Positions 22,837 to 59,144 are shown, numbered from the stretch's first letter. The stretch: DNA of 64,000 nucleotides from a bacterium (GCA_965233585.1 CBDDTI010000295.1:160001-224000), one strand, 5' to 3'. The notes: generated from the sequence alone by a model not told the origin. Numbers and translations are program-made.

Positions 22837-24936
22837 ATGACTCTTCAAGTATTACCTTCTTATGTTTCTGGAAATTGGGAGGCAGGACGAGCTATTCATC
22901 AACCTGCACTGAATGCTTTAACACAAGAACCGATTTGTGATATTAGCTCAAAAGGTTTTGATTTTGCTCAAATTTTACACCATGCTAAATCTCATGGTGC
23001 TTGTTTGCGGAACTTGACCTTCCATGAACGAGCCACGAAGATCACGGCATTAGCCAAGCATCTCAACGGTTTGAAGAAAAAATACTATCCAATCTCTATG
23101 CAAAGCGGAGCCACTCTGGTTGATAGTCAAGTTGACATAGATGGTGGTATCCAAACCTTGTTTGCCGTTTCCAGTCTTGCCAGACGAGGCTTGCCTGATG
23201 AAAAAATTGCCTACGAACAAGGACATGAAATGCTATCCAGAAACGGCACTTTCATTGGTAAGCATCTTTTAGCACCCAAGCATGGCGTAGCTCTTTTAAT
23301 CAATGCCTTCAATTTTCCTTGTTGGGGCATGTTAGAAAAGCTAGCCTCGGCTTTTATTGCTGGTGTACCTGTCATTGTCAAACCTGCAAGCATCACTTCT
23401 TACATTGCTCAAGCTGTTGCTGAAGACATCATTAGCAGTGAAATTTTACCGATAGGAAGTTTTCAAATCATCAATGGGAGTTTAGGAAATTTATTTGACC
23501 TGTTAGATGAACAAGATTCAATTCATTTCACTGGTTCGGCTCAAACTGCCAATTTGCTCAAAGCACATTCAAACCTTTTGAAACAAAGTATTCCCTTTCA
23601 TGCTGAAGCAGATTCCTTGAATTTTGCCATGTTGAGTGAGAAAGCTGTGGCAGATGATGAAGAATTTACAGCTTGCATTGAAGAAATTGCAAAAGAACTC
23701 ATGACCAAAGCAGGGCAACGTTGCACTTGTATTCGCAGAATTTTTGTTCCTGAAACACTGCTTGAGGATTTTCAAAAAAAACTCAAAGCAAGGCTGGTTC
23801 AAATCAAAATAGGCGATCCAACAAATGAGCAAACTCAAATGGGAGCATTAGTTGGGCAATCTCAAAAAGATGATGTTTTAGCGGGGGTTGAAGAATTACA
23901 ACAGCAAGCCTCTATCATGTTTGATGGAAGTCAAAATGAAAGGCTTGGCAGTGCAGAAATTTTACAAAAAGGAGCATTTGTTCCTCCTATGTTGTTACTA
24001 GATGAAGCTGCTGCCACAAAAGAAAACTTAGTGCATCAAAAAGAAATTTTTGGACCTATCGCAACGCTCATTCCTTATGCTCATCTAGATGACGCAATTC
24101 AAGGTATTCGTTTAGGCAAAGGCAGTTTGACAGGCAGTGTTTATAGCAACTCTCCTCAAGAAGCCAAAACTTTGATTGCAGAAATTGGTGCATGGCATGG
24201 GCGAATCAACCTCATTAATCGTGAAGGACTAAAAGAAAATCCCGGGCACGGTACCGTCATGCCTCAAATGGTGCATGGCGGACCGGGACGTGCTGGTGGC
24301 GGTGAAGAATTAGGCGGGATTCGGGGCATCAAACATTTTTTGCAACGAGTTGGCATTCAAGGTTCAGCAGCCATGATCAGCCGTGTCAGTGGGGATTGGT
24401 CTCCTCATGCCCAATCTGAGAAATCCCAAAAACATCTTTTTCGCTTCACTTTCAATGAGCTTCAAATTGGTCAAGGTCTTGAAACCCACCGCCGTACCAT
24501 CACAGAAACGGATATTGTCAATTTTGGTTGCTTGAGTTGGGATCATTTTTATGCTCATTTTGACAAACAAGCAGCAGAACGTTCTATGTTTGGTAAGCGT
24601 GTGGCTCACGGATATTTCGTACTTGCTGCTGCTGCAGGATTATTTGTTGATCCTGCAGAAGGTCCTGTTCTTGCCAATATCGGTTTAGAAGAGTTGAGAT
24701 TTTTAGAACCGGTGTATGCGGAGGATACGATTTTTGTTCGGCTCACTTGCAAACAAAAAACCATCAAACCGCATCGTGATTTAACACAACCTCCTTGTGG
24801 CGAGGTCAAGTGGCTTGCACAAGTTTATAATCAAGATGAAACTTTAGTCGCTCAATATGTAGTGCTGACCTTGGTTAGAAGAGATGACACATGCAAGAAT
24901 GTCAGCCATACCAATTCTGAATATCAACCTGCATAA
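22837..24936 (+). CDS. paaZ: Bifunctional oxepin-CoA hydrolase / aldehyde dehydrogenase
   Basis: INAFNFPCWGMLEK, EADSLN, KAGQRCT, HGGPGRAGGGEELGG plus MaoC domain (RVAHGYF). Confidence 0.96.
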   Translation: MTLQVLPSYVSGNWEAGRAIHQPALNALTQEPICDISSKGFDFAQILHHAKSHGACLRNLTFHERATKITALAKHLNGLKKKYYPISMQSGATLVDSQVDIDGGIQTLFAVSSLARRGLPDEKIAYEQGHEMLSRNGTFIGKHLLAPKHGVALLINAFNFPCWGMLEKLASAFIAGVPVIVKPASITSYIAQAVAEDIISSEILPIGSFQIINGSLGNLFDLLDEQDSIHFTGSAQTANLLKAHSNLLKQSIPFHAEADSLNFAMLSEKAVADDEEFTACIEEIAKELMTKAGQRCTCIRRIFVPETLLEDFQKKLKARLVQIKIGDPTNEQTQMGALVGQSQKDDVLAGVEELQQQASIMFDGSQNERLGSAEILQKGAFVPPMLLLDEAAATKENLVHQKEIFGPIATLIPYAHLDDAIQGIRLGKGSLTGSVYSNSPQEAKTLIAEIGAWHGRINLINREGLKENPGHGTVMPQMVHGGPGRAGGGEELGGIRGIKHFLQRVGIQGSAAMISRVSGDWSPHAQSEKSQKHLFRFTFNELQIGQGLETHRRTITETDIVNFGCLSWDHFYAHFDKQAAERSMFGKRVAHGYFVLAAAAGLFVDPAEGPVLANIGLEELRFLEPVYAEDTIFVRLTCKQKTIKPHRDLTQPPCGEVKWLAQVYNQDETLVAQYVVLTLVRRDDTCKNVSHTNSEYQPA

Positions 24937-24942
24937 AAATTG

Positions 24943-26145
24943 ATGATGCCTCAAGCCTTCATTTGTGATTATATTCGTACTCCAATTGGTCGTTATGCCG
25001 GTGCATTATCCCGTCTGCGAACTGATGATTTAGCTGCTTTAGTGCTTCAAGAAATAACAAACCGCAATCCATCAGTGGACTGGGAAAGATTAGATGATGT
25101 CCTCTTGGGGTGTGCCAACCAGGCAGGAGAAGACAACCGCAACATTGCACGAATGGCAACACTGCTAGCAGGTTTGCCCCAAACTGTACCTGCAGTCACG
25201 ATTAACCGCTTATGTGGTTCAGGACTTGATGCTATTTTGAATGCCTCTCGTATGATTCAGTCGGCAGAAGCAAATTTGGTCATTGCTGGAGGAGTAGAGG
25301 GCATGAGTCGCGCTCCAATGGTGATGCCTAAAGCCACTGTAGCCTTTTCAAGGCAAGCTGAAATTTACGATACCACTATGGGATGGCGTTTTGTCAATCC
25401 TGCTTTAAAAGCACAATATGGAGTGGATACGATGCCAGAAACTGCAGAACATGTTGCCAAACGTTTTCAAATTAGCCGACAAGCCCAAGATGAATTTGCC
25501 TTTCAATCACAACAAAAAACAGCAAAAGCCATCGCCAATCAACGTTTGACAAGTGAAATCATTCCAGTCAGCGTTCCTCAACCCAAAGGTGAGAATGTGT
25601 TGATAGCTCAAGATGAGCATCCACGAGAAACCAGTTTGGAAAAACTTGCACAGCTAAAACCTCTTTTTCCCAAAGGAACGGTTACAGCAGGAAATTCCAG
25701 TGGAATCAATGATGGTGCTGCTGCAGTCTTAGTGGCTTCCGAAGAAGCCATTCAGCAATATCAGCTTGAACCCTTAGCAAGAGTGATTGCAGGAGCAGTT
25801 TCTGGTGTAGAACCAGCGATCATGGGAATCGGTCCTATTTCTGCGACACAAAAACTTTGTCAAAGACTGAAATTGCAACTAGATGATATTGGAATTATTG
25901 AACTTAATGAAGCCTTTGCCAGTCAAAGCCTTGCCGTTTTGAATGGATTAGGAATAGATACAGATGATGAACGGGTCAATCCTAACGGAGGTGCGATTGC
26001 TCTGGGACATCCATTAGGTATGTCTGGAACTCGTATTGCGGGAACGGCAATCAAAGAACTGCGTCTTAAAAATCAAAAACTGGCGTTAGCTACTATGTGC
26101 ATTGGTGTAGGGCAGGGAATTGCTGCAGTCTTTGAGAAAGTTTGA
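24943..26145 (+). CDS. paaJ: 3-oxoadipyl-CoA/3-oxo-5,6-dehydrosuberyl-CoA thiolase
   Basis: GCANQAGEDNRN, NRLCGSG, DTTMGWRFVNP, GHPLG, MCIGVGQG. Confidence 0.93.
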   Translation: MMPQAFICDYIRTPIGRYAGALSRLRTDDLAALVLQEITNRNPSVDWERLDDVLLGCANQAGEDNRNIARMATLLAGLPQTVPAVTINRLCGSGLDAILNASRMIQSAEANLVIAGGVEGMSRAPMVMPKATVAFSRQAEIYDTTMGWRFVNPALKAQYGVDTMPETAEHVAKRFQISRQAQDEFAFQSQQKTAKAIANQRLTSEIIPVSVPQPKGENVLIAQDEHPRETSLEKLAQLKPLFPKGTVTAGNSSGINDGAAAVLVASEEAIQQYQLEPLARVIAGAVSGVEPAIMGIGPISATQKLCQRLKLQLDDIGIIELNEAFASQSLAVLNGLGIDTDDERVNPNGGAIALGHPLGMSGTRIAGTAIKELRLKNQKLALATMCIGVGQGIAAVFEKV

Positions 26146-26152
26146 TAATAAT

Positions 26153-27571: not shown

Positions 27572-28588
27572 ATGTTCAAAAAAACATGTCTCAAAAGTTT
27601 CATCTTCTTTTCAGGATGGCTGATGGCATCGGCTGTTTATGCAGAAACGATGAAGATTGGAACGTGGCTCTCCCCTAAACATCCTCAAAATGCAGTGGTT
27701 CTGCCCACTTGGGGAAAATGGATTGAACTCGCAACGGATGGGCGAGTGAAAATACAACTAGTCTATCACCAAGGACATCCAAAAGGTGTTTTTGGTGATG
27801 TGGAAGATGGCAATTATGATGCAGGTTGGTCTTTTCATGGATACTTTCCCGGTAAGTTTAAGCTGACAGTGATAGCAGAATTGCCTTTGCTTGGTGCAGA
27901 ACCAGAAGCCGCTTCTGTGGCACATTGGCGAATTTATCAAAAGTATTTTAAAACTGGCAAAGCCAATGAGCATAAAGGGCTGGTTCTTGCTGGATTATTT
28001 TTACATGGTTCAGGTGAAATTATGATGCGTGAGCCTGTGGAGAATTTGGCAGAGATGAAAGGTAAAAAGATACGTGTAGGTGGTGGTGTTCAAGGTGCTA
28101 TTGCTGAACAACTAGGAATTAAAGCAGTGCCTGCTCCCGGTTCAAAGGTTTATGAAATCCTCTCTCAAGGGATTGCTGATGGTGTGTTCATGCCAGTCGG
28201 AGAACAAAAAACTTTACGTCTTTCGGAAGTCACCTCGTTCATCTATCAATCCCCACAAGGCATGTATCTAGGCAGTTTCAGTATCTTCATCAGCCCAGAT
28301 TTTTTAAGCAAGTTGAGTCAGAAAGATCGTGAAGCTGTCATGTCCGTTTCTGGAGAATCACTATCGGCTTTAGCTGGTCGTATCTGGCAAAAAAATGATG
28401 CAGAAGGCTATGCCAAAGCACGTCAGGCAGGACATCAAATTGTAAAATGGTCAGCATCGGATCAACGTGAATTTGAAAAAATTGCCAAAGAGATTGAAAG
28501 CGACTGGCTCAAAAGTGTTGAATCTCGCAGAGTTGATGCCAAAAAAGCACTTGCTGAATTTCGTGCCATTGCCCGAAGTTATCAGTAA
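27572..28588 (+). CDS. TRAP transporter substrate-binding protein DctP
   Basis: Signal peptide, ATDGRV, MKGKKIRV, YEILSQGIADG. Confidence 0.92.
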   Translation: MFKKTCLKSFIFFSGWLMASAVYAETMKIGTWLSPKHPQNAVVLPTWGKWIELATDGRVKIQLVYHQGHPKGVFGDVEDGNYDAGWSFHGYFPGKFKLTVIAELPLLGAEPEAASVAHWRIYQKYFKTGKANEHKGLVLAGLFLHGSGEIMMREPVENLAEMKGKKIRVGGGVQGAIAEQLGIKAVPAPGSKVYEILSQGIADGVFMPVGEQKTLRLSEVTSFIYQSPQGMYLGSFSIFISPDFLSKLSQKDREAVMSVSGESLSALAGRIWQKNDAEGYAKARQAGHQIVKWSASDQREFEKIAKEIESDWLKSVESRRVDAKKALAEFRAIARSYQ

Positions 28589-28597
28589 CATGCAATT

Positions 28598-28625
28598 CCT
28601 CTATTCCTTTTTTAAGGAGTAGAGG
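28598..28625 (+). other. Intercistronic stem-loop after dctP
   Basis: CCTCTATTCCTT-TTTT-AAGGAGTAGAGG 12-bp stem with no U tail. Confidence 0.6.
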
Positions 28626-28679
28626 TGACAGACTCATGTTTTTTAAATCTGATGAAAAAGGCAGTTTTACAGAACCACC

Positions 28680-29156
28680 ATGAACCTTTCCAAAATATCT
28701 CATTTCGTAGAAAGTCTTTTAGAAATTATCGTGTGTTGTTTCCTTTTCGCCTTGATGTGGATCACCACGGTTGATGTGATTGGTCGCTATGTGTTCAACT
28801 CGCCCTTGTTTGGTTCCACAGAATTGACAGAATTGACACTCACTTTTGTTTTTTTCGCAACACTTCCGTTACTCTGTTTGAAGAATGAACACATTTCAGT
28901 AGATTTGCTAGAACATCATTTTAGCTCCAGATTCAAATATGTTCGTGAAATCATCAATCAATTTTTATTAATCTTGTGTATAGCAACTATGGGCTGGGGC
29001 ATGTATTTACTTTTATTACGTGCTTGGCGTGATGAATTGGTTAGCGAAATTTTAGAGATTCCTACCTCCTACATTCTTCAATATACGTTGGCTTTGTTAG
29101 TCGTTGCTGTGTGGTCTTGTCTGATGTTTGTCATGGGTCACCTCAAAAAACGATAA
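28680..29156 (+). CDS. TRAP small permease DctQ
   Basis: 4 TM; DVIGRY.FNSP, ELTE, HISVD. Confidence 0.9.
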   Translation: MNLSKISHFVESLLEIIVCCFLFALMWITTVDVIGRYVFNSPLFGSTELTELTLTFVFFATLPLLCLKNEHISVDLLEHHFSSRFKYVREIINQFLLILCIATMGWGMYLLLLRAWRDELVSEILEIPTSYILQYTLALLVVAVWSCLMFVMGHLKKR

Positions 29157-29173
29157 TTCCTATATTCTTCAAT

Positions 29174-30502
29174 ATGGAACTTGCTCTCATTGGCTTTGGC
29201 AGTTTGATTGTTTTACTACTGCTTCATGTTCCTATAGCCATGGCGATGGGAATCGTTGGTTTTTTTGGGTTTGCGGTTTCTAATGGCTTGTTCATTGAAG
29301 AATCATTGATAACTTTTCAATGGAAGTCCTTATTTTATTTGGTAGGCAGAACCACCAATTCCCTGGTGCAGTCCTATGAATTATCTGTCATTCCACTGTT
29401 TATTTTGATGGGAGATTTTATTTCTCAAGGAGGTTTGTCCAAAGATTTATATCGCTTTGCCAACGCCTTAGTTGGGCATTATCGTGGTGGACTTTCACTT
29501 TCAACCATTTTGGCTTGTGGAGGATTTTCATCGGTTTGTGGGTCATCGCTCGCCACTACGGCAACCATGTCCAAAATTGCTTATCCTGAAATGCAAAAAA
29601 ACGGATACAGTCAAGAGTTAGCTTGCGCTTCTGTTGTAGCTGGAAGTACCCTAGGCATTTTAATTCCACCAAGTGTCATTTTGATCATTTATGGATTGAT
29701 TACAGAACAAAGCATTCGTGAACTCTTTGCTGCAGGATTCTTGCCCGGCTTATTAGGAATACTTTTGTATCTGGGGGCGGCACGTTATGTGGTTTGGAGA
29801 AAACCTGAGGCAGGCCCTGCTTCTCAAAAATATTCTTTTCAAGAACGTTGGCATGCTCTCTTGAAAGTGTATCCTTCTATACTTTTATTTTTAGTGGTGA
29901 TGGGTGGAATTTATGGAGGAGTTTTTACACCAACGGAAGCGGCAGGAATTGGGGCAACCGGTGGATTTCTCATTGCATTGCTGAAACGTAGTCTGAACTG
30001 GTCTTCTTTATTTCACGTTCTCAAAACTTCATCTATCACTTCAGCAAAATTGTTTCTACTGCTCATCGGTGCTTCTATTTTTTCAAGATTTATCAATGAC
30101 ACAGGGGTTGCTAATGAACTGACCATGACCATTGCTAGCTTACAAGTGAATCCTTATGTCATCATTATTTTGATGATGGTGGTTTATATTCTCTTGGGAA
30201 TGGTGCTTGAAAGTTTATCTATGATCTTATTGACGGTGCCGTTGTTTTTTCCTGTCGTTTCAGTCTTGGGTTTTGATTTAGTGTGGTTTGGAATTTTAGT
30301 AGTGGTGGTGACAGAAATCAGTTTGATTACTCCCCCTGTGGGGTTGAATGTCTTTGTCATGTCTAGTGTTCTCAAAGGAGTTACACCTACCACTATCTTT
30401 AAAGGAGTCACTCCCTTTTGGGTAGCTGACATGATTCGTCTCATTTTGCTGATATTCTTTCCAATGATGAGCCTCTGGCTTCCTAGTTTGGTTTACCGTT
30501 AG
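29174..30502 (+). CDS. TRAP large permease DctM
   Basis: IPLFILMG, GSSLAT, LGILIPPS, FTPTEAA, ITPPVGLN. Confidence 0.95.
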   Translation: MELALIGFGSLIVLLLLHVPIAMAMGIVGFFGFAVSNGLFIEESLITFQWKSLFYLVGRTTNSLVQSYELSVIPLFILMGDFISQGGLSKDLYRFANALVGHYRGGLSLSTILACGGFSSVCGSSLATTATMSKIAYPEMQKNGYSQELACASVVAGSTLGILIPPSVILIIYGLITEQSIRELFAAGFLPGLLGILLYLGAARYVVWRKPEAGPASQKYSFQERWHALLKVYPSILLFLVVMGGIYGGVFTPTEAAGIGATGGFLIALLKRSLNWSSLFHVLKTSSITSAKLFLLLIGASIFSRFINDTGVANELTMTIASLQVNPYVIIILMMVVYILLGMVLESLSMILLTVPLFFPVVSVLGFDLVWFGILVVVVTEISLITPPVGLNVFVMSSVLKGVTPTTIFKGVTPFWVADMIRLILLIFFPMMSLWLPSLVYR

Positions 30503-30565: not shown

Positions 30566-31333
30566 ATGGAACTTGAAAACTTAACAAGCATTGAAAAGTT
30601 TTTGCTGCAATTAGCAGACAATGGAATAGTGCATAGTCATCGGCTTTGTCAATGGTGTTCTCATGCCCCAGAGTTGGAATTAGAAATGAGTTTAGCAAAC
30701 ATTGGTCTGGATCATTTAGGTCAAGCAAGACTTTGGCTAGAAGCTTTGACTCAGGAATTGTCAATCAAAGGCATCCACATGACCGAAGATCAAATGGCTT
30801 ATTTTCGCGAAGATAATGAGTTTTTTAATTTGCTTCTTCTTGAACAGGAAGATGAAGACTTTGCTCATGCAATATGCAAAATGTTTTTTTATGATTTATA
30901 TCATCAGCTTGTTCTGCAACAACTAGTCCATTCCAATCACCTTGTTTTTGTTGCCACTGCTCAAAAAGCACTGATTGAGGTTGGCTATCATGTCAAGTTT
31001 TCAAAGCACTGGTGTCAAGTCTTGTGTCAAGGTACACCAGAAAGCCTCAATCGTATGGAATCTGCTATTGATTATTTATGGCAGTATTGCGGCGAGTTCT
31101 TTGTTCCCGCTAGGCAAGAGGAACAACTGATTCAAGAGAACATACTGAATTTAGAACAAATCAAAACAATATGGTCTCAAGAAGTTTTTGCTGCGATGCC
31201 TCAAGTCAAAATTGACAAAGAATTAGATTTTCATCTTCCTTTAGGCAAGCAAAATCATCACACAGAATACTTAGGATATTTGCTAGCAGAGATGCAAGTT
31301 TTAGCACGTAAACATCCTCATGCTCAATGGTAA
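30566..31333 (+). CDS. paaC: Phenylacetyl-CoA epoxidase subunit C
   Basis: WCSHAPELE, LDHLGQAR, HTEYLGYLLAEMQ...P.AQW. Confidence 0.95.
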   Translation: MELENLTSIEKFLLQLADNGIVHSHRLCQWCSHAPELELEMSLANIGLDHLGQARLWLEALTQELSIKGIHMTEDQMAYFREDNEFFNLLLLEQEDEDFAHAICKMFFYDLYHQLVLQQLVHSNHLVFVATAQKALIEVGYHVKFSKHWCQVLCQGTPESLNRMESAIDYLWQYCGEFFVPARQEEQLIQENILNLEQIKTIWSQEVFAAMPQVKIDKELDFHLPLGKQNHHTEYLGYLLAEMQVLARKHPHAQW

Positions 31334-31339
31334 TTCCAA

Positions 31340-31831
31340 ATGCAAACTTCATTCAGTCTCAAACATGTTGAACGTATTGTTGCACAAGTGCCGGATCCTG
31401 AAATGCCGATGGTCACTATTCAAGATTTAGGAATCTTAAAGCGTGTTGAGGTTTTGAAGAATCATCATTTTCAAATTGTGATGACTCCTACCTTTAGTGG
31501 TTGCCCTGCCATGCAAGAGATTGAGCAAAGCATTGCCCAATCTTTGCTTGATGCTGGTGTTCAAAATTTTAAGATTGTCAGAGAACTTGACCCCCCTTGG
31601 ACTTCACAAAGGATTACACCTCAAGGAAGAAAAAAATTGATTGCCAATGGTATTGCTGTTGCTGATGAAGGGTTGCTTTGTCCCAGATGCCAAAGCTCCA
31701 AGGTTGCCATGTTGAGTGAATTTGGTGCAACTTCTTGCAAAAGTTTTGCACGTTGTCGCTCATGCCAAGAACCTTTTGAAGTCTTCAAATCGCTTGCTCC
31801 ACCTCGTTTTATAAAAAAAATTGATGGCTAA
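31340..31831 (+). CDS. paaD: Phenylacetate-CoA oxygenase maturation subunit D
   Basis: VPDPEMP, DLG, TPTFSGCPAM, CPRC, FGATSCK, C..C.EPF. Confidence 0.95.
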   Translation: MQTSFSLKHVERIVAQVPDPEMPMVTIQDLGILKRVEVLKNHHFQIVMTPTFSGCPAMQEIEQSIAQSLLDAGVQNFKIVRELDPPWTSQRITPQGRKKLIANGIAVADEGLLCPRCQSSKVAMLSEFGATSCKSFARCRSCQEPFEVFKSLAPPRFIKKIDG

Positions 31832-32897
31832 TGCTTTTCAACCGCTTCGTATCCAATCAGTTCAGGCACTGACTGATGATGCCTTGTTGATTGAATTGAA
31901 ACGTCCCAAAACTTTTCACTTTAAAAGTGGTCAGCATCTCTCCATTCAGTCCGAAATTGACAATGAAATGGTGTTTAGAACTTATTCTATTTGCACAACA
32001 CCTCAGTCTGAAAAACTTGCAATAGGGGTGCGTGTTTTACCTCATGGAATTTTTTCTAATTGGCTACAACAAAATGCAAAAGCAGGTGATTTCTTAAACT
32101 GTTCTGTACCAACCGGTTTATTTCATTTGCATCCTCCCAAATCTCATAAACAGCATAATTTGTTTATTGCTGGAGGGAGTGGAATTACACCGATTGTTAG
32201 TATGCTAGAAGAATATTTGGAAAGGTTTGAGCAAACTCAAGCGACCTTGCTTTATTCCAACCGTAGCTTTGCTTCAACCATGTTTTTTGAACACCTGATG
32301 CAACTGAAAAATCGTTACATCGGACGATTGCAACTCTTTTTTCTCACCAGCAGACAACAACAAATTCAAAACTGGTTACATTCTCGCTTGAATGGAGAGG
32401 CATTGATGCAGCTACAGCAATTCAAAGTCATTGATCTACAGTCTTATCAAGATGTTTATTTGTGTGGTCCCAGAGGTATGATTGACGGATGCTTAGAAAT
32501 TTTAGATGAACATGAATTTCCTCAAGCACAACTCCACTACGAGTTGTTTACTTCTACTACAATTTCGGCAAAACAGGTTCAACATCAATCCAGTCCAGAA
32601 TTAAGGGAACATCAAAAGCTGGCTCAAATCTCATTTCAATATTTAGGAGAAATTCATCAAATTGACTTTGTGGAAGATGACCACTCTATTTTGACTGCTG
32701 CAGCAAGACAAGGGCATCAATTACCTTATGCTTGTGCAGGGGGAGTTTGTGGAACTTGCCGCGCTAAAATCTTAAAAGGTTCTGCTCAGATGTCAGAAAA
32801 TTACGCACTGGATCAAGAAGATTTAGCAGAACATTTTGTGCTGACGTGCCAAGCGATTCCTACAACCGATGAAGTGTTTTTGAATTTTGATTATTGA
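31824..32897 (+). CDS. paaE: Phenylacetyl-CoA epoxidase reductase subunit E
   Basis: RTYSI, AGGSGITP, YLCGP, CAGGVCGTC...LTCQ 2Fe-2S motif. Confidence 0.95.
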   Translation: MANAFQPLRIQSVQALTDDALLIELKRPKTFHFKSGQHLSIQSEIDNEMVFRTYSICTTPQSEKLAIGVRVLPHGIFSNWLQQNAKAGDFLNCSVPTGLFHLHPPKSHKQHNLFIAGGSGITPIVSMLEEYLERFEQTQATLLYSNRSFASTMFFEHLMQLKNRYIGRLQLFFLTSRQQQIQNWLHSRLNGEALMQLQQFKVIDLQSYQDVYLCGPRGMIDGCLEILDEHEFPQAQLHYELFTSTTISAKQVQHQSSPELREHQKLAQISFQYLGEIHQIDFVEDDHSILTAAARQGHQLPYACAGGVCGTCRAKILKGSAQMSENYALDQEDLAEHFVLTCQAIPTTDEVFLNFDY

Positions 32898-32923
32898 AGT
32901 CAATCTTTTTTCTGATACTTGAT

Positions 32924-33526: not shown

Positions 33527-33586
33527 TTTCAAATAAGCAACTTCTTGATTTTGAATGTCGCTGAAAAAGATTCTATTCGTAAAATT

Positions 33587-34357: not shown

Positions 34358-34376
34358 TTCAAATCACTCAAATATT

Positions 34377-36670: not shown

Positions 36671-36682
36671 AGGATTGAACAC

Positions 36683-37120: not shown

Positions 37121-37125
37121 TTACC

Positions 37126-48970: not shown

Positions 48971-49921
48971 ATGAGTGCATCTTTTGCATCATCTGGAGAT
49001 TTAGGAGAAAAGAAAATCACTTTCAGCAAAATGGGTGAGCATTGCTACGGATTCACAGCAGAGGGAGACCCCAACACAGGAGTCATTGTTGGCGATGATT
49101 CTGTGATGGTGATTGATGCCCAAGCCACGCCATTTATGGCACAAAAAGTCATTGACCGTGTCAAAAGCATTACTGATAAACCCATCTCTCATGTGGTGCT
49201 GACCCATTATCATGCTGTCAGAACGCTTGGTGCTTCGGCTTACCATGCTGATGAAATCATTATGAGTGATTCTGCTTATGACTATGTTCTGGAGAGAGGA
49301 GAGCAAGATTGGGAGTCTGAATTTAGAAGGTTTCCCAGACTCTTTCAAGGACATGAAAGCATTCCCGGACTCACCTATCCCACCACCACTTTTAGTGAAA
49401 ACATGACTATTTTTCTTGGAAAATTAGAAGTGCGTTTGATGAAAATTGGAAGAGGACATACGGCAGGGGATTTGATTGTTCATGTTCCAAAGTCCAATGT
49501 TGTCTTTTCAGGAGACTTGGTAGAGTATGAATCTGCTTGTTATTGCGGAGATGCTCATCTTGGAGACTGGCCTGCCACGCTAGACAAACTTTCTGTCTTC
49601 AATGCCAATGCAGTCTTGCCCGGACGTGGTGCGGCATTGATTGGCAGAGACATGGCGAAAAAAGGGATTGCGATGACACGTGATTTCATTGTGACCCTTT
49701 ATGGAAGCGTACAGGAAAGTGTTGCCTCGCAAAAAACACTCAAGCAAGCCTTTGATGCAGCGAATGAAGCCATGCGTGACAAGTTTGGACATTTTGCTAT
49801 CTTTGAACATTGTCAGCCGTTTAGCGTGAGTCGTGCTTATGATGAAGCCAACGGCATAGACCACCCCACTATCTGGACTGCTGAACGTGATTTGGACATG
49901 TGGAATCAGCTGAACGGATAG
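48971..49921 (+). CDS. MBL-fold metallo-hydrolase of the type found in hmg clusters
   Basis: AEGDPN, THYHAVR, GHTAGD, FSGDL, PGRG. Confidence 0.85.
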   Translation: MSASFASSGDLGEKKITFSKMGEHCYGFTAEGDPNTGVIVGDDSVMVIDAQATPFMAQKVIDRVKSITDKPISHVVLTHYHAVRTLGASAYHADEIIMSDSAYDYVLERGEQDWESEFRRFPRLFQGHESIPGLTYPTTTFSENMTIFLGKLEVRLMKIGRGHTAGDLIVHVPKSNVVFSGDLVEYESACYCGDAHLGDWPATLDKLSVFNANAVLPGRGAALIGRDMAKKGIAMTRDFIVTLYGSVQESVASQKTLKQAFDAANEAMRDKFGHFAIFEHCQPFSVSRAYDEANGIDHPTIWTAERDLDMWNQLNG

Positions 49922-50029
49922 CTACTGCCTAAAAAACAACTTGAAACCTAGAATTATTACAGAAAATTTTTTGTCGTTTTAAAGTCATAACTTCTTAAAT
50001 TGTGAAAAACTAACTCATTCAGGTATAAG

Positions 50030-51331
50030 ATGAAAACCAAAAAAGTAGTAAGAGAAACCATTGCAAAAAGCAAAGAGCAAGACCGAGACTATCATGCTGT
50101 GATTTCTTGGATTAAAGACTCTGCCATTGAAGATTGTCAAGAGATGGTCGTGGTCAAGGATTCTATCAACGTGCAAGGATTTCCGACGACCAATGGAACA
50201 AAAAGCATGGGAAAAACCATTGAGCAAACAAGTGCTGGTGCTGTCCAAAAGCTGGAAGAAGCAGGGTATTTGATGACTTGCAAAACGAATCTGCATGAAA
50301 CCATGTTCGGAATCACCAGTCAAAATCATGCTTTTGGATTTGTGAAAAATCCTTTGACCGAGACAGGCATCGCTGGGGGAAGCAGTGGAGGAACTGCTGT
50401 GGCGATTGCATTGGGTTATGCAGATTTAGGTTTAGGCACGGATACAGGAGGCTCTTGCCGTATTCCTGCCTCACTCACTGGAACTTATGGCTTTCGTCCC
50501 TCCACAGGACGTTATCCCAAGGAAGGTGTCATGGTCATTTCTCCAACTCGCGACACGGTGGGGTCTTTTGCCAAGACGTTGCAAGGCATTGTGGAGTTAG
50601 ATGCTTGTATCGCCCCGCATTCTCAAACAACAGAGATTCCTGACTTCAAATCTATTCGTCTTGGTGTGGATAAAAAAACCTTTTGGCATGATGTGGATCC
50701 AAGAGTCAGCGAAGCAACCAACAAAGCCTTGAATCGCCTAGAACAACAAGGCTTCCAGCTGATAGAAGTAGATGCTCACGACATTTTAACACTGGCTAAC
50801 ACTATCTCCTTTCCTATTGTTTTGTTTGAAGCCCATGATGCCACTTTGCGAAACCTAGAACAACAAGGCGTGACTCTTGAAGAGTTTCTTGGTCAATTAA
50901 AAAGCCCAGATGTGCGTGCTGTGTTTGTAGATGGCATTGTACAGGGTTTGAGTGTTTTTGGAGAAACACGCATTGCTCAAGCAGATTATGAAGCCGTCAT
51001 GCAGCAAGAACTTCCCAAACTTCAAACGATGTATGCACAGCTTTTTGACACTCATCAACTTGATGCACTGCTTTTTCCTACCACTCCTGCCCCTGCTCTT
51101 GCGGTTGATGAACAAGGCATGATCACTTTGAATGGACAATCACAACCAGCGTTCCCCGTTTACATCAGACACATGGAGTTAAGCTCGCTAGTCGCTAGTC
51201 CAAGCCTCTGCCTGCCTTGTGGAAAAACGGCTGAAGGGTTGCCTGTTGGACTATCTTTAGATGGAATTTCTGAAAAAGACCACCATTTGTTGGCAGTAAC
51301 ACAAGCTGTGGATTCTGTTTTGTCTCACTAA
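50030..51331 (+). CDS. Amidase-signature hydrolase, IaaH/mandelamide-hydrolase-like
   Basis: VKD, NLHE..FGITS.N, GGSSGG, GTDTGGSCRIPAS, GFRPSTGRYP, SPTRDTVG. Confidence 0.88.
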   Translation: MKTKKVVRETIAKSKEQDRDYHAVISWIKDSAIEDCQEMVVVKDSINVQGFPTTNGTKSMGKTIEQTSAGAVQKLEEAGYLMTCKTNLHETMFGITSQNHAFGFVKNPLTETGIAGGSSGGTAVAIALGYADLGLGTDTGGSCRIPASLTGTYGFRPSTGRYPKEGVMVISPTRDTVGSFAKTLQGIVELDACIAPHSQTTEIPDFKSIRLGVDKKTFWHDVDPRVSEATNKALNRLEQQGFQLIEVDAHDILTLANTISFPIVLFEAHDATLRNLEQQGVTLEEFLGQLKSPDVRAVFVDGIVQGLSVFGETRIAQADYEAVMQQELPKLQTMYAQLFDTHQLDALLFPTTPAPALAVDEQGMITLNGQSQPAFPVYIRHMELSSLVASPSLCLPCGKTAEGLPVGLSLDGISEKDHHLLAVTQAVDSVLSH

Positions 51332-51340
51332 CTTAAAAAC

Positions 51341-53314
51341 ATGTCTATCTTTCCTCCACCTGAACTGGAAGATGGGGAGGCTCAAGATGTTGCCCCCCCT
51401 AAAACTGTTGAACATCTAGCCACTCAAGGCATTGTTCGCTATCCAGACTTAACGTCCAGAGTGGATTATGTTGAGACCATTCGCCAACTTTCAGACAGCC
51501 CTCATGGATTTTGCAAACAGGCTTTAAGCCAAGAAGAAGCCAATCGTTCTGTCGTGATTGTCGGTGCAGGAATGAGTGGCTTGATTGCCGCTTATGAACT
51601 CAAAAGAGCAGGCTTTCAAAACTTGACCATTCTTGATGCAGGAGACATGAGTCAGTCTGAAACCCAAACCCAAGAACCTTTGAGCTTTAGCCGAACTTAC
51701 ACCACTGCTGAAGGTTTTGAGATAGGAGCAATGCGTTTTCCAGACAAAGCCAAGTTGTTTTGGCATTATGTTGCCACCCGTCCCAGTTTGAAAACTCAAC
51801 CTGTGCAACCCTTTTCTAATCCCGGTCAAGTGCCAACCTTGCTCGTCTATCAAGGAGAATCCCACCTTTTTCAAAATCAAATCCAACCCCTTCCCCCCAA
51901 ATTTTTGAATATCAAAAAAAGGTTTGACCGCATGGTGGAACATCTGATGAAAGATAAAACGAGCCTACAATGGACAACTTCACAATTTACAAAAGTGTTG
52001 TATCAAGAACAACTGACTGAACAAGAACGCCACCAGATTAAAACCTACTGGAACGATTTTCTTTGTCATTTCAAAAACAAAAGTTTTTATGATGTGTTGA
52101 TAGAGGAAGGACAATTTGATGAGGAAGCCGTCAATATCCTTTACACCATCGGTTTAGGCACAGGTCCTTTTGGTGCTTTGTTTGAAGTGGCATTTGCCGA
52201 CATGTACCGCATTTTAATTTGGCAATACACTCAAGAATACAGCCTTGCTCCTCATTGCACTGTACAAGGAATCACTCATGCTTTTGCACAAGATTTTAAG
52301 ATTCGCACCAATACCAATGTAACAGGGGTCTGGCGTTGTGAAGGCGGGCAAGTTGTCATTGAAACTAACACCTTAGAACAAGGCAAAGTGAACACAGTCC
52401 ATGAAAAATATGACTATGCCATCATTGCCACTTCTCATCGCAGTATGTCACAAATGATGGGGTTGGCTGACAGTAGCAAAAGCAATCCTGAACGTCTACT
52501 AAAAAGTCCATTTAATCCCTACCATACTTTTCCCAATGAAACGATTTCTCAAGAGGCAGAAGTTTTTTTAAAACGGCTGATTGATGCCTTGCAAAAGACG
52601 TTTATGATTGACGCAACTAAAACTTTTGTCAGCCTCAAACAGCCTCCTTGGGAAGTCCCTGAACTCAAAGAAGACTGGCCCCGTATCCATGGTGAGCCTG
52701 TGCAAACCATCATCAGTGATACTTTATGCCAACAAAGTTATATCGTCACAACCAAAACAGGATATGGTTTGTTGTTAAGCTATGCTTGGGGAGATGAGTG
52801 TTCTCGTCAAGAAGGCTTGCAACATGTTCAACAGTCCTTGATTCCAGACTCATGGAAGGTGACATCAAACGTGCATGTCAATATCTTGCAACAAAGTTAC
52901 AATGAACTGGCGTTGGGGGGAAAATCCACCACTGAAACCAAAGTGTTATACAATCTCATTCAAAAATGTAATGCAGGTCTGTCCCCTGAAAACATTGCCT
53001 GCTACACCTTTTTTTGGCAACAGGCACCGGGAGTCTATGGAGGGTTCAAACTCAACAAACCCAATCAACATGAAGCTGTAACAACGCTTGCTCATCAAAA
53101 TGCAATCGCTCTGGCTTCTGATTCTGGTCAATCTTGGTTTCCTGAATCGTATCGTAAGATTTTTTTAGCAGGGGAGAGTTGTAGCTTTTACGGAGGATGG
53201 GTAGAAGGAGCCGCCTTTGCAGGAGTGAATGCTGCTGCTGGTGTCATGTATGAAATCAATCGTCATAAACTGCATGACAACGTTCGGAAGTTTGTGAGTC
53301 TGCCCAACGTCTGA
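51341..53314 (+). CDS. IaaM-like flavin amino-acid 2-monooxygenase, paralog 2
   Basis: GAGMSG, EIGAMRFP, IGLGTGPFG, LLSYAW, GGFKLN.P, LAGESCSFYGGWVEGA; 9 nt after the amidase. Confidence 0.85.
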   Translation: MSIFPPPELEDGEAQDVAPPKTVEHLATQGIVRYPDLTSRVDYVETIRQLSDSPHGFCKQALSQEEANRSVVIVGAGMSGLIAAYELKRAGFQNLTILDAGDMSQSETQTQEPLSFSRTYTTAEGFEIGAMRFPDKAKLFWHYVATRPSLKTQPVQPFSNPGQVPTLLVYQGESHLFQNQIQPLPPKFLNIKKRFDRMVEHLMKDKTSLQWTTSQFTKVLYQEQLTEQERHQIKTYWNDFLCHFKNKSFYDVLIEEGQFDEEAVNILYTIGLGTGPFGALFEVAFADMYRILIWQYTQEYSLAPHCTVQGITHAFAQDFKIRTNTNVTGVWRCEGGQVVIETNTLEQGKVNTVHEKYDYAIIATSHRSMSQMMGLADSSKSNPERLLKSPFNPYHTFPNETISQEAEVFLKRLIDALQKTFMIDATKTFVSLKQPPWEVPELKEDWPRIHGEPVQTIISDTLCQQSYIVTTKTGYGLLLSYAWGDECSRQEGLQHVQQSLIPDSWKVTSNVHVNILQQSYNELALGGKSTTETKVLYNLIQKCNAGLSPENIACYTFFWQQAPGVYGGFKLNKPNQHEAVTTLAHQNAIALASDSGQSWFPESYRKIFLAGESCSFYGGWVEGAAFAGVNAAAGVMYEINRHKLHDNVRKFVSLPNV

Positions 53315-53393
53315 TGGATACTTCCATCAAAGAAACTAAAGTCATTCGTCAATAAGCCGAGCGAGTCAATTCATTTTTTCAAATCAAACACTT

Positions 53394-55019
53394 ATGAAAA
53401 GTCCCCATTGGAGAGAAGTAGAACAAATGCGGTTTCAGCCTGTTCATGCCAAGCCTGCCCAAAGTGACATCATCATCGTCGGAGCAGGACCTGTTGGAAT
53501 GAGCCTTGCCATTGATCTGGCACAGCGAGGCATCAAGAGTCTTGTCTTGGATGATGAAAACCGTGTTTCCGATGGCTCACGTGCGATATGTTGGGCAAGA
53601 AAAACATTAGAGATTTTCACAAGGTTAGGCATTGGTGAGACCTTGCGAGAAGAAGGCATCCAATGGACAACAGGCAGAGTGTTCCATCAAGACAAACTCA
53701 TTTACAAACAACAACTCACTCCTGACACTTTCCCTGAAAATCCTTTTTTTGTGAATTTTCAACAATCCTTATGCGAGTACCTGCTTATCAAACGTTGTGA
53801 AGCCTTGAACATTGAGATTCGTTGGAAAAATAAGTTGATTGACTTTGAGCAAAATGAACAAGGAGTGTCGTTGCAAGTCCAAGCTCCAGATCAAAAGTAT
53901 CAGCTTCAAACCAAGTATTTGATTGCTTGTGATGGTGCAAGGTCTTTTGTGAGAAGGCAGCTGGGTTTGGAGTTTGAAGGTCAAAGATTCCGTGACCGCT
54001 TCTTGATTGTGGATATAGAAATGAAAGGGGAGTTTCCGCAAGAACGTTGGTTTTGGTTTGAGCCTCCTTTTCATCAAGGACAATCTACTTTACTGCACAA
54101 ACAACCTCAAAATGTGTGGCGAATTGATTTTCAACTAGATGCCAACCAAGAAACCAGCAATCAAGAACTCAAAAACGAGCAAGATGAAGCCTCAATCGCT
54201 AAGAGAGTGCGTGCTTTTTTGGGACGTGATGACTTGGAGTTTTCTATTGTGTGGTTTTCCATTTATTCGTTCACTTGCCGTCGTTTGAAGAACTTTCGGC
54301 ATGGCAATATCTTTTTTGCAGGAGACAGCGCCCATGTGGTGTCTCCATTTGGGGCAAGAGGAGGTAACGGAGGCGTGCAAGATGCAGAAAACTTAGCATG
54401 GAAACTTGCTGAAGTTTTGTCAGGGAAAGCACACCCCAAATTGTTAGACACTTATGAAGAAGAGCGGATTTCTGCTTGTGATGAAAATATCTTGCATTCT
54501 GCACGCACCACCGATTTTATGACTCCTAAATCCCAAAAATCGTATCAGTTGAGAAATGCTGTTCTCAAACTTTCACGTTTTCATCATTTTGCCAGCCGTT
54601 TAGTCAATGCAGGCAGAATGAGCTTGCCACATTCTTATCAAGGGGCAAGCCTATCTGGTCTCCTTCCACCAAACACCACCATTGCCGCAGGCGAGCCTGC
54701 CATTGATGTCCCTTTGACAAATGTGCAAGGAGAACCAACCTACTTACTCAGACACATTCAAAACTTCACCATTGTTGGATTTAGACGCCCACCTTTAGAA
54801 AAAGCCCTTGATTATGATGTTCTCAACATCAATTCTACCGATGGCACAACAACTTTGAACGATGCAGAAGGTTTGTTAGCCAAGCACTACTTCAAACATC
54901 ATAAACAAGGTGGTTATCTTGTCTTTCGTCCAGACCAACATGTCTTAGGTGTCTGTTTAGAAGAGACTCCAGAACAAGCCAAGTCTGCGATTGAGAAAGT
55001 GAGAGCAGGGAAGTTTTAG
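53394..55019 (+). CDS. Group A flavin aromatic hydroxylase (MhaA-like; candidate hydroxyphenylacetate hydroxylase)
   Basis: GAGPVG, DGSRAICW, ACDGARS, AGDSAH..SPFGARG.N.G.QD, RPDQH. Confidence 0.82.
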   Translation: MKSPHWREVEQMRFQPVHAKPAQSDIIIVGAGPVGMSLAIDLAQRGIKSLVLDDENRVSDGSRAICWARKTLEIFTRLGIGETLREEGIQWTTGRVFHQDKLIYKQQLTPDTFPENPFFVNFQQSLCEYLLIKRCEALNIEIRWKNKLIDFEQNEQGVSLQVQAPDQKYQLQTKYLIACDGARSFVRRQLGLEFEGQRFRDRFLIVDIEMKGEFPQERWFWFEPPFHQGQSTLLHKQPQNVWRIDFQLDANQETSNQELKNEQDEASIAKRVRAFLGRDDLEFSIVWFSIYSFTCRRLKNFRHGNIFFAGDSAHVVSPFGARGGNGGVQDAENLAWKLAEVLSGKAHPKLLDTYEEERISACDENILHSARTTDFMTPKSQKSYQLRNAVLKLSRFHHFASRLVNAGRMSLPHSYQGASLSGLLPPNTTIAAGEPAIDVPLTNVQGEPTYLLRHIQNFTIVGFRRPPLEKALDYDVLNINSTDGTTTLNDAEGLLAKHYFKHHKQGGYLVFRPDQHVLGVCLEETPEQAKSAIEKVRAGKF

Positions 55020-55097
55020 GCAAAAGAAACCGAATATTGATGACCTAAGTTGCTAGTAAATATTCTAAGTTTATGAGTTCACTGCCTAGTGTCTTTT

Positions 55098-57086: not shown

Positions 57087-57105
57087 AGTCTTTGAGCCTT
57101 TCTGT

Positions 57106-58263: not shown

Positions 58264-58309
58264 AATGTGGCTCTTTTAGTGTTGATGAGGTTTTCTAACC
58301 CAAGGCTAG

Positions 58310-58519
58310 TCAATCAGGTTGCTGGGTGATTCGGTGAGCTTCTTCAACCAAGAATTTAAGACGTTCTGCATTGCCAACTTCATTGGCAAGTAAAAAAATC
58401 AAAGTCTGGCTGAATTGTGTAGATTGCTGCTCATCAAACGATTCATAAATATCAATCAACTGATGGTACAAGTCATCGGGGTTTTCTAAGGAATCAGGAA
58501 TGGTTTGGTTAGTCTGCAT
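58310..58519 (-). CDS. DUF2783-like small protein (MhaB-like coupling protein candidate)
   Basis: PDDLYHQLID...QS......LIFLLANEVG pattern; ATG 58519 overlaps the end of maiA; 69 aa. Confidence 0.75.
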   Translation of the reverse strand: MQTNQTIPDSLENPDDLYHQLIDIYESFDEQQSTQFSQTLIFLLANEVGNAERLKFLVEEAHRITQQPD

Positions 58520-59144
58520 CAGGTTGTTGTTGAGGTTGTGCTTGTTGAAAAGCTTGCAGTTGCAAAGCATTGTTTTGAATCTGTTTTAAGCGAGGATAGG
58601 AAGACAAATCAACCTTCCAACGTTCGGCATTATACAACTGCGGAATCAGGCAAACGTCTGCAAGGGTGGGTTCATCACCAAAACAAAACAGGTTTTGGGG
58701 ACTGACTTTCGCCTCAAGGATTGCAAAGGTTTTAGACATCCAATAGTTCATCCACTGCTGAGTCATCTCTTGCGTCAAACCATGTTCCTTTTTTAAATAA
58801 TTCAAAACTCCTAAGTTGTTGATGGGTTGGACTTCCATGGCAATATCATAAGCCACAGATAGCACTTTTGCACGCAGAGTTAAGTCTTTTGGAATCAATG
58901 CAGGTTTGGGTTGTATATGCTCCAAATAATCAATGATAACTAAGGATTGACAAAGACAAGTGCCATCATAGAGTTCCAAAGTAGGTAATACATTTGTTGG
59001 ATTTTTCTGCTGATACCAACTTTGTTGATGCTCCCTTTTTAAGAGATTGACAGGCACTAATTCATGCTCAATCTGTTTCAAATTCAAAGCAATTCGCACA
59101 CGATACGAAGAGCTAGAACGCCAATAGGTGTAAAGTTTCATCAT
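58509..59144 (-). CDS. maiA: Maleylacetoacetate isomerase (GST zeta)
   Basis: LYTYWRSSSSYRVRIALNLK, QPINNL, ADVCLIPQLYNA. Confidence 0.95.
   Translation of the reverse strand: MMKLYTYWRSSSSYRVRIALNLKQIEHELVPVNLLKREHQQSWYQQKNPTNVLPTLELYDGTCLCQSLVIIDYLEHIQPKPALIPKDLTLRAKVLSVAYDIAMEVQPINNLGVLNYLKKEHGLTQEMTQQWMNYWMSKTFAILEAKVSPQNLFCFGDEPTLADVCLIPQLYNAERWKVDLSSYPRLKQIQNNALQLQAFQQAQPQQQPDAD

Follow-up and report, generated by a model that had tools for sequence, protein, structure and literature searches.

Gene content and organization of the locus

A 64,000-nt stretch of bacterial DNA (GCA_965233585.1, CBDDTI010000295.1:160001-224000; hereafter the window, whose coordinates are used throughout) contains, at 22837..59144, a block of ~36 kb in which two flavoproteins (F1 and F2), an amidase and an amide-type ATP-binding cassette (ABC) importer are encoded among genes of phenylacetate (paa) and homogentisate (hmg) catabolism. 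On balance, and with modest confidence, we read this block as a composite catabolic island for aromatic C6-C2 compounds, with an amide feeder operon grafted onto an arylacetate hub. Genes were called from a listing of open reading frames (ORFs), with Pfam run on 37 ORFs and four more and NCBIfam on 29 ORFs. Every gene named in the initial annotation was recovered in its place by ORF calls, Pfam and NCBIfam, and a tripartite ATP-independent periplasmic (TRAP) transporter, a metallo-beta-lactamase (MBL)-fold gene, an Rpn-type nuclease gene and two tRNA genes were added to the list. The features are as follows.

22632..22793, + strand: tRNA-Val(tac) and tRNA-Asp(gtc), 44 bp upstream of paaZ, at the left edge of the block (ARAGORN, Rfam)
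22837-24936, + strand: paaZ (NCBIfam PaaZ, 841 bits; cut-off 563)
24940-26145, + strand: paaJ/pcaF thiolase (NCBIfam PRK09050, 652 bits; cut-off 605)
After paaJ, to 27532, + strand: paaA and paaB (NCBIfam PaaA, 510 bits, cut-off 280; PaaB, 113 bits, cut-off 85)
27572..30502, + strand: TRAP transporter dctP/dctQ/dctM, between paaB and paaC (Pfam DctP, DctQ, DctM)
30566..38415, + strand: paaC, paaD, paaE, paaY, paaF, paaG, paaH, paaI and paaK (NCBIfam)
38704..39693, - strand: FAA-hydrolase-family gene of the short type, 329 aa, candidate fumarylacetoacetase (Pfam FAA_hydrolase and FAA_hydro_N_2)
39791..40639, - strand: Rpn-family PD-(D/E)XK nuclease or putative transposase (Pfam PDDEXK_2, TIGR01784)
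40750..42036, - strand: hmgA, homogentisate 1,2-dioxygenase (TIGR01015, 670 bits; cut-off 511)
42307-43539, + strand: Urt-like substrate-binding protein (SBP) of amide/urea type, with a Tat-like signal SRRSF (Pfam, NCBIfam)
From 43508, to 44407, + strand: UrtB-like permease (Pfam, NCBIfam)
44455..46410, + strand: F1, L-phenylalanine oxidase (PAO)-like flavin adenine dinucleotide (FAD) L-amino-acid oxidase/2-monooxygenase (PDB matches 3we0, 2yr4, 4iv9)
46429-48171, + strand: UrtC-UrtD fusion of permease and ATPase, 580 aa (Pfam, NCBIfam)
48172-48858, + strand: UrtE-like ATPase (Pfam, NCBIfam)
48971..49921, + strand: MBL-fold protein (PDB 8d2z, E 2e-120)
50030..51331, + strand: amidase-signature amidase, IaaH/MdlY-like (Pfam Amidase; NF005688, 414 bits)
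51341..53314, + strand: F2, PAO-like FAD L-amino-acid oxidase/2-monooxygenase (PDB 2yr4, E 6e-32)
53394..55019, + strand: MhaA-like FAD aromatic hydroxylase, PRK08132 (NF006002, 630.6 bits; cut-off 416)
55098-57140, - strand: acetoacetate-CoA ligase (TIGR01217, 745 bits; cut-off 521)
57106-58263, - strand: acetyl-CoA acetyltransferase, a thiolase (TIGR01930, 439 bits; cut-off 241)
58310..58570, - strand: DUF2783 protein, candidate MhaB-like small component (Pfam PF10932, E 3.5e-11)
58509..59144, - strand: maiA, maleylacetoacetate isomerase (TIGR01262, 260 bits; cut-off 171)

Nine plus-strand genes between 42307 and 55019 are co-directional with gaps of at most 112 bp, an operon-like arrangement that is divergent from hmgA. 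Their order is SBP, permease, F1, fused permease/ATPase, ATPase, MBL-fold protein, amidase, F2 and PRK08132 hydroxylase; F1 thus lies between the two permease genes of the importer, and F2 starts 9 bp downstream of the amidase. On the minus strand, the FAA-hydrolase-family gene, the Rpn nuclease gene and hmgA are convergent with the paa set, and maiA, the DUF2783 gene, the thiolase gene and the acetoacetate-CoA ligase gene are convergent with the nine-gene operon.

Textbook bacterial catabolism of Phe and Tyr proceeds through PhhA, transamination and HppD, or via phenylpyruvate and phenylacetaldehyde. The initial annotation had reported that hppD, phhA, an aminotransferase and a phenylpyruvate decarboxylase are absent from the window, and Pfam agreed: no HppD, PhhA, aminotransferase or thiamine pyrophosphate (TPP) decarboxylase domain was found in the 56 window ORFs of at least 100 aa (short overlapping ORFs left out).

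Two rare flavoproteins resemble phenylalanine oxidase

Judged by sequence and by a predicted structure, F1 and F2 are members of the family of PAO, tryptophan 2-monooxygenase (TMO) and L-amino acid oxidase/monooxygenase (L-AAO/MOG), and are nearer to PAO than to IaaM. They are paralogues (39% identical, E 1e-144) that match PF01593 (Amino_oxidase) at 62.8 bits for F1 and 72.3 bits for F2 (cut-off 19.8), with GxGxxG at about residues 72-77 and no visible signal peptide. Their only strong sequence matches in the PDB were L-AAO/MOG of Pseudomonas sp. AIU 813, PAO of Pseudomonas sp. P-501 and TMO (for F1, 3we0 at E 2e-34, 2yr4 at E 3e-29 and 4iv9 at E 9e-27). An AlphaFold (AF2) model of F2, built from a 16-row alignment (pLDDT 76, pTM 0.82), retrieved PAO first in Foldseek (E 2e-33, TM 0.70-0.73), with TMO at 1e-26 and L-AAO/MOG at 8e-25. 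We know of no described link of PAO to amidase, importer or paa genes.

In a quick maximum-likelihood tree (LG+G4, 77 rows), F1 formed a clade with the pair of F2 and P0002, the latter a close relative from a protein database search (SH-aLRT 99). This clade lay inside a 16-row clade (SH-aLRT 95) that also held PAO-like proteins, one of which (P0037) matches 2yr4 at E 3e-191, and two proteins of locus L002 from an alphaproteobacterial metagenome-assembled genome (MAG). Classic iaaM-iaaH pairs of Burkholderiaceae, Pseudomonas and Xanthomonas (L019, L021, L032, L042 and others) made up a separate 42-row clade. The placement with PAO is tentative, because in pairwise identity F1 and F2 are about equally close to each of these groups (23-32%).

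The lineage is rare. A word-indexed search of 5.8 billion proteins gave five matches, of which only P0002 was close (80%), and an exhaustive search of 1.84 billion cluster representatives gave 341 matches at E ≤ 1e-3, only 26 of them at E ≤ 1e-30. A scan of species-representative genomes yielded 79 loci, with no full-length match above ~31% identity, and a plasmid search with F2 returned 20 records, all classic iaaM-type and at most 26% identical. ESM Atlas offered generic names alone for F2 and for the MBL protein.

According to the available part of PMC5832979, three positions separate the lysine enzyme from the aromatic-substrate enzymes: L-AAO/MOG Trp235, equivalent to TMO Phe244 and PAO Phe316; Asp238, which binds the lysine side chain and is equivalent to TMO Val247 and PAO Leu319; and Ala515, equivalent to TMO Gly518 and PAO Gly659. 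In HMMER alignments, F2 residues R132, F277, L280 and G619 fall on PAO R143, F316, L319 and G659, and F1 residues F269 and L272 on L-AAO/MOG W235 and D238, with Gly before the cage Trp. The carboxylate-binding Arg motif GAMRFP is kept, the plug loops read IGFGTGPF (F1) and IGLGTGPF (F2), and the cage motifs GGFKL and GGW are present. As these pocket residues are of the PAO-type Phe/Leu/Gly, F1 and F2 are predicted to be built for a hydrophobic or aromatic, not a basic, side chain; sequence tells apart neither Phe and Tyr nor oxidase and monooxygenase chemistry. The F2 model shares its fold with PAO (PDB 2yr4/3ayj), and the carboxylate-binding Arg, the Phe of the plug loop, the Leu in the specificity column and the Gly preceding the cage Trp are conserved; against the PAO-like P0037, the identity of F1 and F2 is no more than 24-26%.

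Across a 26-row alignment, the specificity column follows genomic context. F1, F2, P0002, the pair from L002 and the PAO-like rows have Leu there, four of four classic iaaM-type rows have Val, and L029 and L004, the latter without an informative neighbour, have Asp. In L029 (9884-13272), a CN-hydrolase gene lies ~0.4 kb downstream of the F1/F2-like (hereafter F-like) gene on the opposite strand, an arrangement that resembles a DavB/DavA pair, and the coincidence of Asp with this neighbour supports the predictive value of the column. Elsewhere, L009 (an Okeania cyanobacterium, 9824-16560) has a TPP-dependent decarboxylase-type gene beside the F-like gene and an aldehyde dehydrogenase gene further on, and L003 (a gammaproteobacterial MAG, 9815-16809) has a TPP-enzyme gene ~3 kb from it. 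The description of F1 and F2 as IaaM-like in the initial annotation thus needs narrowing: they fall in the family of amide-forming L-amino-acid flavoproteins, but not with the IaaM type, which forms another clade and has Val where they have Leu.

An amidase and importer module that also exists by itself

The amidase carries VVVKD, IAGGSSGG and GTDTGGSCRIPAS, with the set of KD, GGSSGG and GTDTGGSCRIP intact; we take GGSSGG, GTDxGGS and the associated motifs to be the Ser-cisSer-Lys catalytic set. Since its match to the NCBIfam IaaH model NF005688 starts at profile position 80, the protein is ~40 residues shorter at the N-terminus. Its named relatives are 38-45% identical and are named indoleacetamide hydrolase.

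The importer proteins have the Urt models as their best NCBIfam matches, but all score under the cut-offs for true Urt components (UrtA 227/493, UrtB 229/250, UrtC 189/296, UrtD 214/304, UrtE 172/286), and the best PDB matches of the SBP are an unannotated receptor (8tg1), three urea-binding UrtA proteins and AmiC. The designation of the system as an amide-type importer was upheld: the SBP falls in the amide/urea subfamily, and its two closest plasmid relatives, from Variovorax boronicumulans (59%; L085) and Burkholderia anthina (51%; L086), are preceded by an annotated iaaH. In both plasmids the operon runs iaaH, SBP, permease, fused permease/ATPase and ATPase, with every gene homologous to its window counterpart (SBP 59%/51%, UrtB 50-53%, UrtCD 44%, amidase 36-38%). 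Both operons differ from the window in having no inserted flavoprotein gene and in placing the amidase upstream, rather than downstream, of the importer. These operons indicate that amidase and importer were already a module for uptake and hydrolysis, one that needs no F-like gene to work.

The UrtC-UrtD fusion, of 580-608 aa, occurs in the window, L002 (17835-19625), L085, L086 and a Ralstonia plasmid (L083), and looks like a signature of this amide-importer subfamily. On pBAM1, a small catabolic plasmid of Aminobacter sp. MSH1 from dichlobenil-treated soil (L087), an SBP 38% identical to that of the window is encoded ~4 kb from an amidase gene, presumably that of the 2,6-dichlorobenzamide amidase BbdA, which would be another link of the SBP subfamily to aromatic amide metabolism.

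In the DavB/DavA lysine route, a lysine 2-monooxygenase works with a 5-aminovaleramidase. The window shares with that route the catabolic amide logic of a 2-monooxygenase and an amidase feeding a central pathway; it differs in having a predicted aromatic instead of a basic substrate and an amidase-signature amidase instead of a CN-hydrolase. With IaaM/IaaH it shares the succession of amino acid, amide and acid and the placing of a flavoprotein gene beside an amidase-signature amidase gene, both of the same superfamilies. It is set apart from that pair by the clade of the flavoproteins, Leu in place of Val, a catabolic instead of a biosynthetic setting, and an amidase that scores under the IaaH cut-off.

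The block contains complete paa and homogentisate genes

The claim of complete paa genes was borne out, with PaaK, PaaABCDE, PaaG, PaaZ, PaaJ, PaaF and PaaH all found by NCBIfam on the plus strand from paaZ (22837) to paaK (38415). PaaZ, PaaJ, PaaA, PaaB, PaaC, PaaD, PaaI, PaaK, HmgA, MaiA, the acetoacetate-CoA ligase and the PRK08132 hydroxylase exceeded their NCBIfam cut-offs; for PaaE, PaaY, PaaF, PaaG and PaaH the expected model was the top NCBIfam match, yet under its curated cut-off. The FAA-hydrolase-family protein had no NCBIfam match at E ≤ 1e-10. The paa genes would convert phenylacetate to acetyl-CoA and succinyl-CoA, and hmgA, maiA, the FAA-hydrolase-family enzyme, acetoacetate-CoA ligase and thiolase would convert homogentisate to fumarate and acetyl-CoA.

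The genes paaA, paaB and paaC are contiguous in L002 and on Dinoroseobacter shibae plasmid pDSHI02 (L080); in the window they are interrupted by the TRAP genes, a candidate arylacetate uptake system. A TRAP system 31-44% identical to that of the window adjoins maiA on a Paracoccus plasmid (L084). The Rpn nuclease gene splits an otherwise single hmg transcription unit between the FAA-hydrolase-family gene and hmgA.

The gene order on pDSHI02 is fahA-hmgA-MarR, MBL-FAD oxidoreductase-DUF2783-pcaF-paaABCDE and TetR-paaK-paaI. It has in common with the window an arylacetate hub of hmg genes, an MBL/MhaA-like hydroxylase/DUF2783 module and paa genes (HmgA 60%, MBL 62%, MhaA-like 44%, PaaA 63% and PaaK 56% identical), but has no F-like flavoprotein, amidase or amide importer gene in the 19 kb examined. 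Plasmid contexts such as this indicate that the hub exists without the amide genes.

A conserved MBL, hydroxylase and DUF2783 trio is split in the window

Over nearly its full length the MBL protein matches PDB 8d2z (E 2e-120), for which no function is stated, and it carries HYHAVR at the position where HxHxDH, which we take to be the motif of the fold, would be expected; it might be a thioesterase or a lactonase. Its relatives occur on 187 plasmid records, from which we examined five contexts (L080-L084, from D. shibae, Peteryoungia, Sulfitobacter, Ralstonia and Paracoccus). In all five, the MBL gene is followed contiguously by genes for an MhaA-like hydroxylase, 41-50% identical to that of the window, and a DUF2783 protein; hmgA is adjacent in four, and on pDSHI02 the trio is continued directly by pcaF-paaABCDE, and paaK and paaI are close by. 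The window has the amidase and F2 genes inserted at precisely the junction of the MBL gene and the hydroxylase gene, and its DUF2783 gene lies 3.3 kb from the hydroxylase gene on the opposite strand. The initial annotation had paired an MhaA-like hydroxylase with DUF2783, and both are indeed present in the hmg block (630.6 bits and E 3.5e-11), but not as neighbours.

In the available part of PMC3053370, MhaAB is described as a large FAD hydroxylase with a ~60-aa partner, encoded next to hmg genes and yielding homogentisate. A gene set of this type, a PRK08132 FAD hydroxylase and a small DUF2783 protein near hmg genes, is present in the window, and resembles MhaAB, the 3-hydroxyphenylacetate 6-hydroxylase of Pseudomonas putida U, and BxeA2727/2726 of Paraburkholderia xenovorans LB400 in combining a large FAD hydroxylase with a small partner. 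From the 60-aa size of MhaB we infer that it is a DUF2783 protein. The conserved MBL gene precedes the hydroxylase pair in the window and in the five plasmid contexts, whereas the available parts of the MhaAB accounts (PMC3053370, PMC10983741) mention none. Literature searches on PDB 8TG1 and 8D2Z returned nothing relevant, and for DUF2783 the searched literature held one paper, the available part of which concerns an unrelated context. No gene was named in the literature searched for the NIH-shift 4-hydroxyphenylacetate (4-HPA) 1-hydroxylase (EC 1.14.13.18); a SAR116 preprint that mentions 4-HPA 1-monooxygenase proved without bearing on the block.

The modules recur independently in other genomes

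We compared 32 window proteins with the 79 loci by tblastn, with Pfam annotation of neighbours. On the MAG chromosome of L002, two tandem F-like genes are followed by paaJ-paaABCDE and then by a Urt-like ABC set with the UrtC-D fusion seen in the window (UrtA 54% and PaaA 65% identical to the window), an instance of the co-location of IaaM-like with paa genes for which the initial annotation had proposed a search. In L001, an F-like gene is divergent from a gene for a UrtA-like SBP. An amidase homologue is present in 33 of the 79 loci, mostly directly downstream of the F-like gene in the classic iaaM-iaaH arrangement. For the amidase, F2 and the hydroxylase, relatives at 78%, 80% and 80% identity are each recorded on a contig 31,261 nt long; they are probably on one contig of a related organism, equal size not being proof. 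Because the sub-modules recur independently in other genomes, the grouping of genes in the window is more than chance.

Flanking and regulatory features

Upstream of paaZ, the two tRNA genes mark the kind of site at which islands typically insert; at 0.37-0.46, the GC content of the block is unremarkable. A tRNA-linked integrative island was unsupported, no repeat of the tRNA region of at least 12 nt being found elsewhere in the window except AT-rich words, and an Rfam scan gave the two tRNAs and nothing else. We also dropped the idea of an operator shared by the paa, hmgA/urtA and maiA promoter regions, for which only short AT-rich 9-mers and a TTGACA-like palindrome came up, none convincing. 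Scans of 38000-57900 for promoters (43 promoter-like sites versus 38.6 +/- 6.3 in shuffles) and terminators (14 terminator-like sites versus 17.4 +/- 3.0) were uninformative.

Beyond the block, a 20-nt direct repeat in two copies 64 nt apart (59551-59634) lies just upstream of an outer-membrane efflux gene at 59639, from which a resistance-nodulation-division (RND) efflux set (outer-membrane efflux protein, HlyD-type adaptor and AcrB-type pump) extends to the window end. A gene of the spore-photoproduct-lyase family is present at 19247-20383. The organism otherwise looks Gram-negative, with a Tat-exported periplasmic SBP, a TRAP system and RND efflux with an outer-membrane factor.

Discussion

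The gene set suggests a route in which the cytoplasmic F1 and F2 would act on L-Phe and on a hydroxylated Phe (Tyr or m-Tyr) by oxidative decarboxylation, giving arylacetamides and CO2, and the amidase would hydrolyse the amides to arylacetates and NH4+. Phenylacetate would enter the paa pathway via PaaK, and hydroxyphenylacetate would be converted to homogentisate by the MBL/MhaA-like/DUF2783 module, with a putative part for the MBL protein. The importer could bring in external arylacetamides or recapture leaked amide. What points to an amide, and not a keto acid, as the product of F1 and F2 is the adjacent amidase gene. The branch from Phe through phenylacetamide and phenylacetate to the paa genes is reasonably supported as far as sequence comparison goes, and better so than the hydroxy branch, given the PAO-type pocket and the link of F-like genes to paa in L002.

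Several observations weigh against this reading. The amidase scores 414.1 bits against NF005688, below the cut-off of 532, so that the label IaaH/MdlY-like holds for its intact amidase-signature motifs but not for IaaH family membership by score. As the module lacks an F-like gene in Variovorax and Burkholderia, amidase and importer could serve imported amides alone, and an enzyme that forms amides in the cytoplasm would not obviously call for their import. In L002, no amidase gene occurs within 10 kb on either side. The grouping of F1 and F2 with PAO comes from one quick tree (SH-aLRT 95), and the two, only 24-28% identical to PAO-like, L002, L009 and IaaM-type proteins alike, represent a deep lineage without a characterised member. 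Leu at the specificity column is found also in clades with keto-acid-type neighbours (L003, L009), where the gene context suggests a route from amino acid through keto acid and aldehyde to acid. The block has no regulator gene, and hppD and phhA may sit outside the window, elsewhere in the genome.

A further difficulty concerns the hydroxy branch, in which getting from 4-HPA to homogentisate calls for a 1-hydroxylase and an NIH shift. According to the available parts of PMC3053370 and PMC10983741, P. putida MhaAB uses 3-hydroxyphenylacetate (3-HPA), not 4-HPA, whereas the substrate of the window hydroxylase may be either. The LB400 authors hypothesise that MhaAB may also act on 4-HPA via an NIH shift (PMC10983741), and a review, in the part available, gives a route from Tyr through 4-hydroxyphenylpyruvate and 4-HPA to homogentisate via 4-HPA 1-hydroxylase (PMC9338888). 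Taken together, these accounts make m-tyrosine to 3-HPA as compatible with the genes as Tyr to 4-HPA. Of the amide route proposed in the initial annotation, the Phe branch is accordingly the better-supported part, with its PAO-type pocket and the L002 link; the branch from Tyr through 4-HPA to homogentisate runs against the 3-HPA specificity of MhaAB and is conjecture.

It is possible, if unlikely, that the locus serves amide scavenging only. Importer and amidase would then use external arylacetamides, for example from nitrile hydratases or IaaM-type enzymes of other organisms, and F1 and F2 would be plain L-amino-acid oxidases. Their keto acids would leave for other pathways, or the H2O2 formed alongside would decarboxylate them to those same arylacetates. 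Such a division of labour would fit the iaaH, SBP and ABC module without an F-like gene in the two closest plasmid relatives, the TPP decarboxylases near related F-like clades (L003 and L009, with an aldehyde dehydrogenase in L009), the absence of an amidase gene in those 20 kb around the F-like pair of L002, and the oxidase as well as monooxygenase activity of PAO and L-AAO/MOG (PMC5832979, available part). It does not explain why F1 should lie inside the importer gene set and F2 start 9 bp after the amidase, or why F-like genes are tied to an amide-type importer in two other genomes (L001, L002); nor did Pfam find in the 56 window ORFs a keto-acid decarboxylase, hppD or any aldehyde dehydrogenase except the PaaZ domain.

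The proximity of F1 and F2 to paa and hmg genes might also reflect island assembly and not metabolic flow, with Leu, Met, Trp or non-proteinogenic amino acids as the substrates. We think this improbable: the F-like pair independently adjoins paaJ-paaABCDE in L002, the amidase and F2 are inserted within the homogentisate-forming module, and isovalerate, methylthiopropionate and indoleacetate pathways are not present among the same window ORFs. In its favour, work on the engineered D238F L-AAO/MOG indicates that an enzyme with Leu or Phe in the specificity column accepts Leu, Met and Phe (PMC5832979, available part), the lineage is deep and without a characterised member, and the Rpn nuclease gene, like the tRNA genes at the flank, may point to mosaic assembly. 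That F2 and the amidase form an IaaM/IaaH pair making indole-3-acetic or phenylacetic acid as a signal seems very improbable, even though a monooxygenase gene stands next to an IaaH-like amidase gene whose relatives are named indoleacetamide hydrolase, an arrangement seen in most of the 33 of 79 related loci with an amidase homologue. The classic iaaM clade does not include F1 and F2, which have Leu, not Val, at the specificity column, all 20 plasmid matches of F2 are at most 26% identical, and the pair sits among ~30 catabolic genes and is followed by a ring hydroxylase gene.

A catabolic amide route feeding an arylacetate hub could be taken further, to a bolder and rather unlikely form. F2 would be a tyrosine 2-monooxygenase that, with the amidase, hands 4-HPA straight to the MBL/MhaA-like/DUF2783 module, and this module would be the NIH-shift 4-HPA 1-hydroxylase with the MBL protein as an undescribed obligatory third component (for example a thioesterase or lactonase). 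Tyr would thereby reach homogentisate on an HppD-independent path, and no arylacetamide-dedicated ABC importer would have preceded the Urt-like system.

The conversion of Phe to phenylacetamide and phenylacetate is already on the KEGG map, as quoted in the available parts of PMC2770484 and PMC11925752, where phenylacetamide is also reported to induce a paaA reporter in Burkholderia cenocepacia. A full-text literature search, in which subscription journals were not covered, found no account of a cluster in which the gene of a PAO-type enzyme accompanies an amidase gene and genes of paa or hmg type. The novelty suggested in the initial annotation therefore holds for the clustered pathway but not for its chemistry: what is new is the dedicated gene cluster, a DavB/DavA- or IaaM/IaaH-type amide route for aromatic amino acids nested in a known arylacetate hub.

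The amide chemistry of a Phe 2-monooxygenase and an amidase has so far consisted of isolated enzymology and lines on the KEGG map, and the window and the L002 MAG give it a concrete gene set. F1 and F2 are candidates for new amino-acid 2-monooxygenase specificities, and so for biocatalysts for aryl amides, and the Urt-like system is a candidate arylacetamide ABC importer. The MBL/MhaA-like/DUF2783 genes would be a widely conserved, undescribed homogentisate-forming trio that could settle the gene of the 4-HPA 1-hydroxylase. As a whole, the block would be an example of how a catabolic island is assembled, with feeder genes nested inside pre-existing modules.

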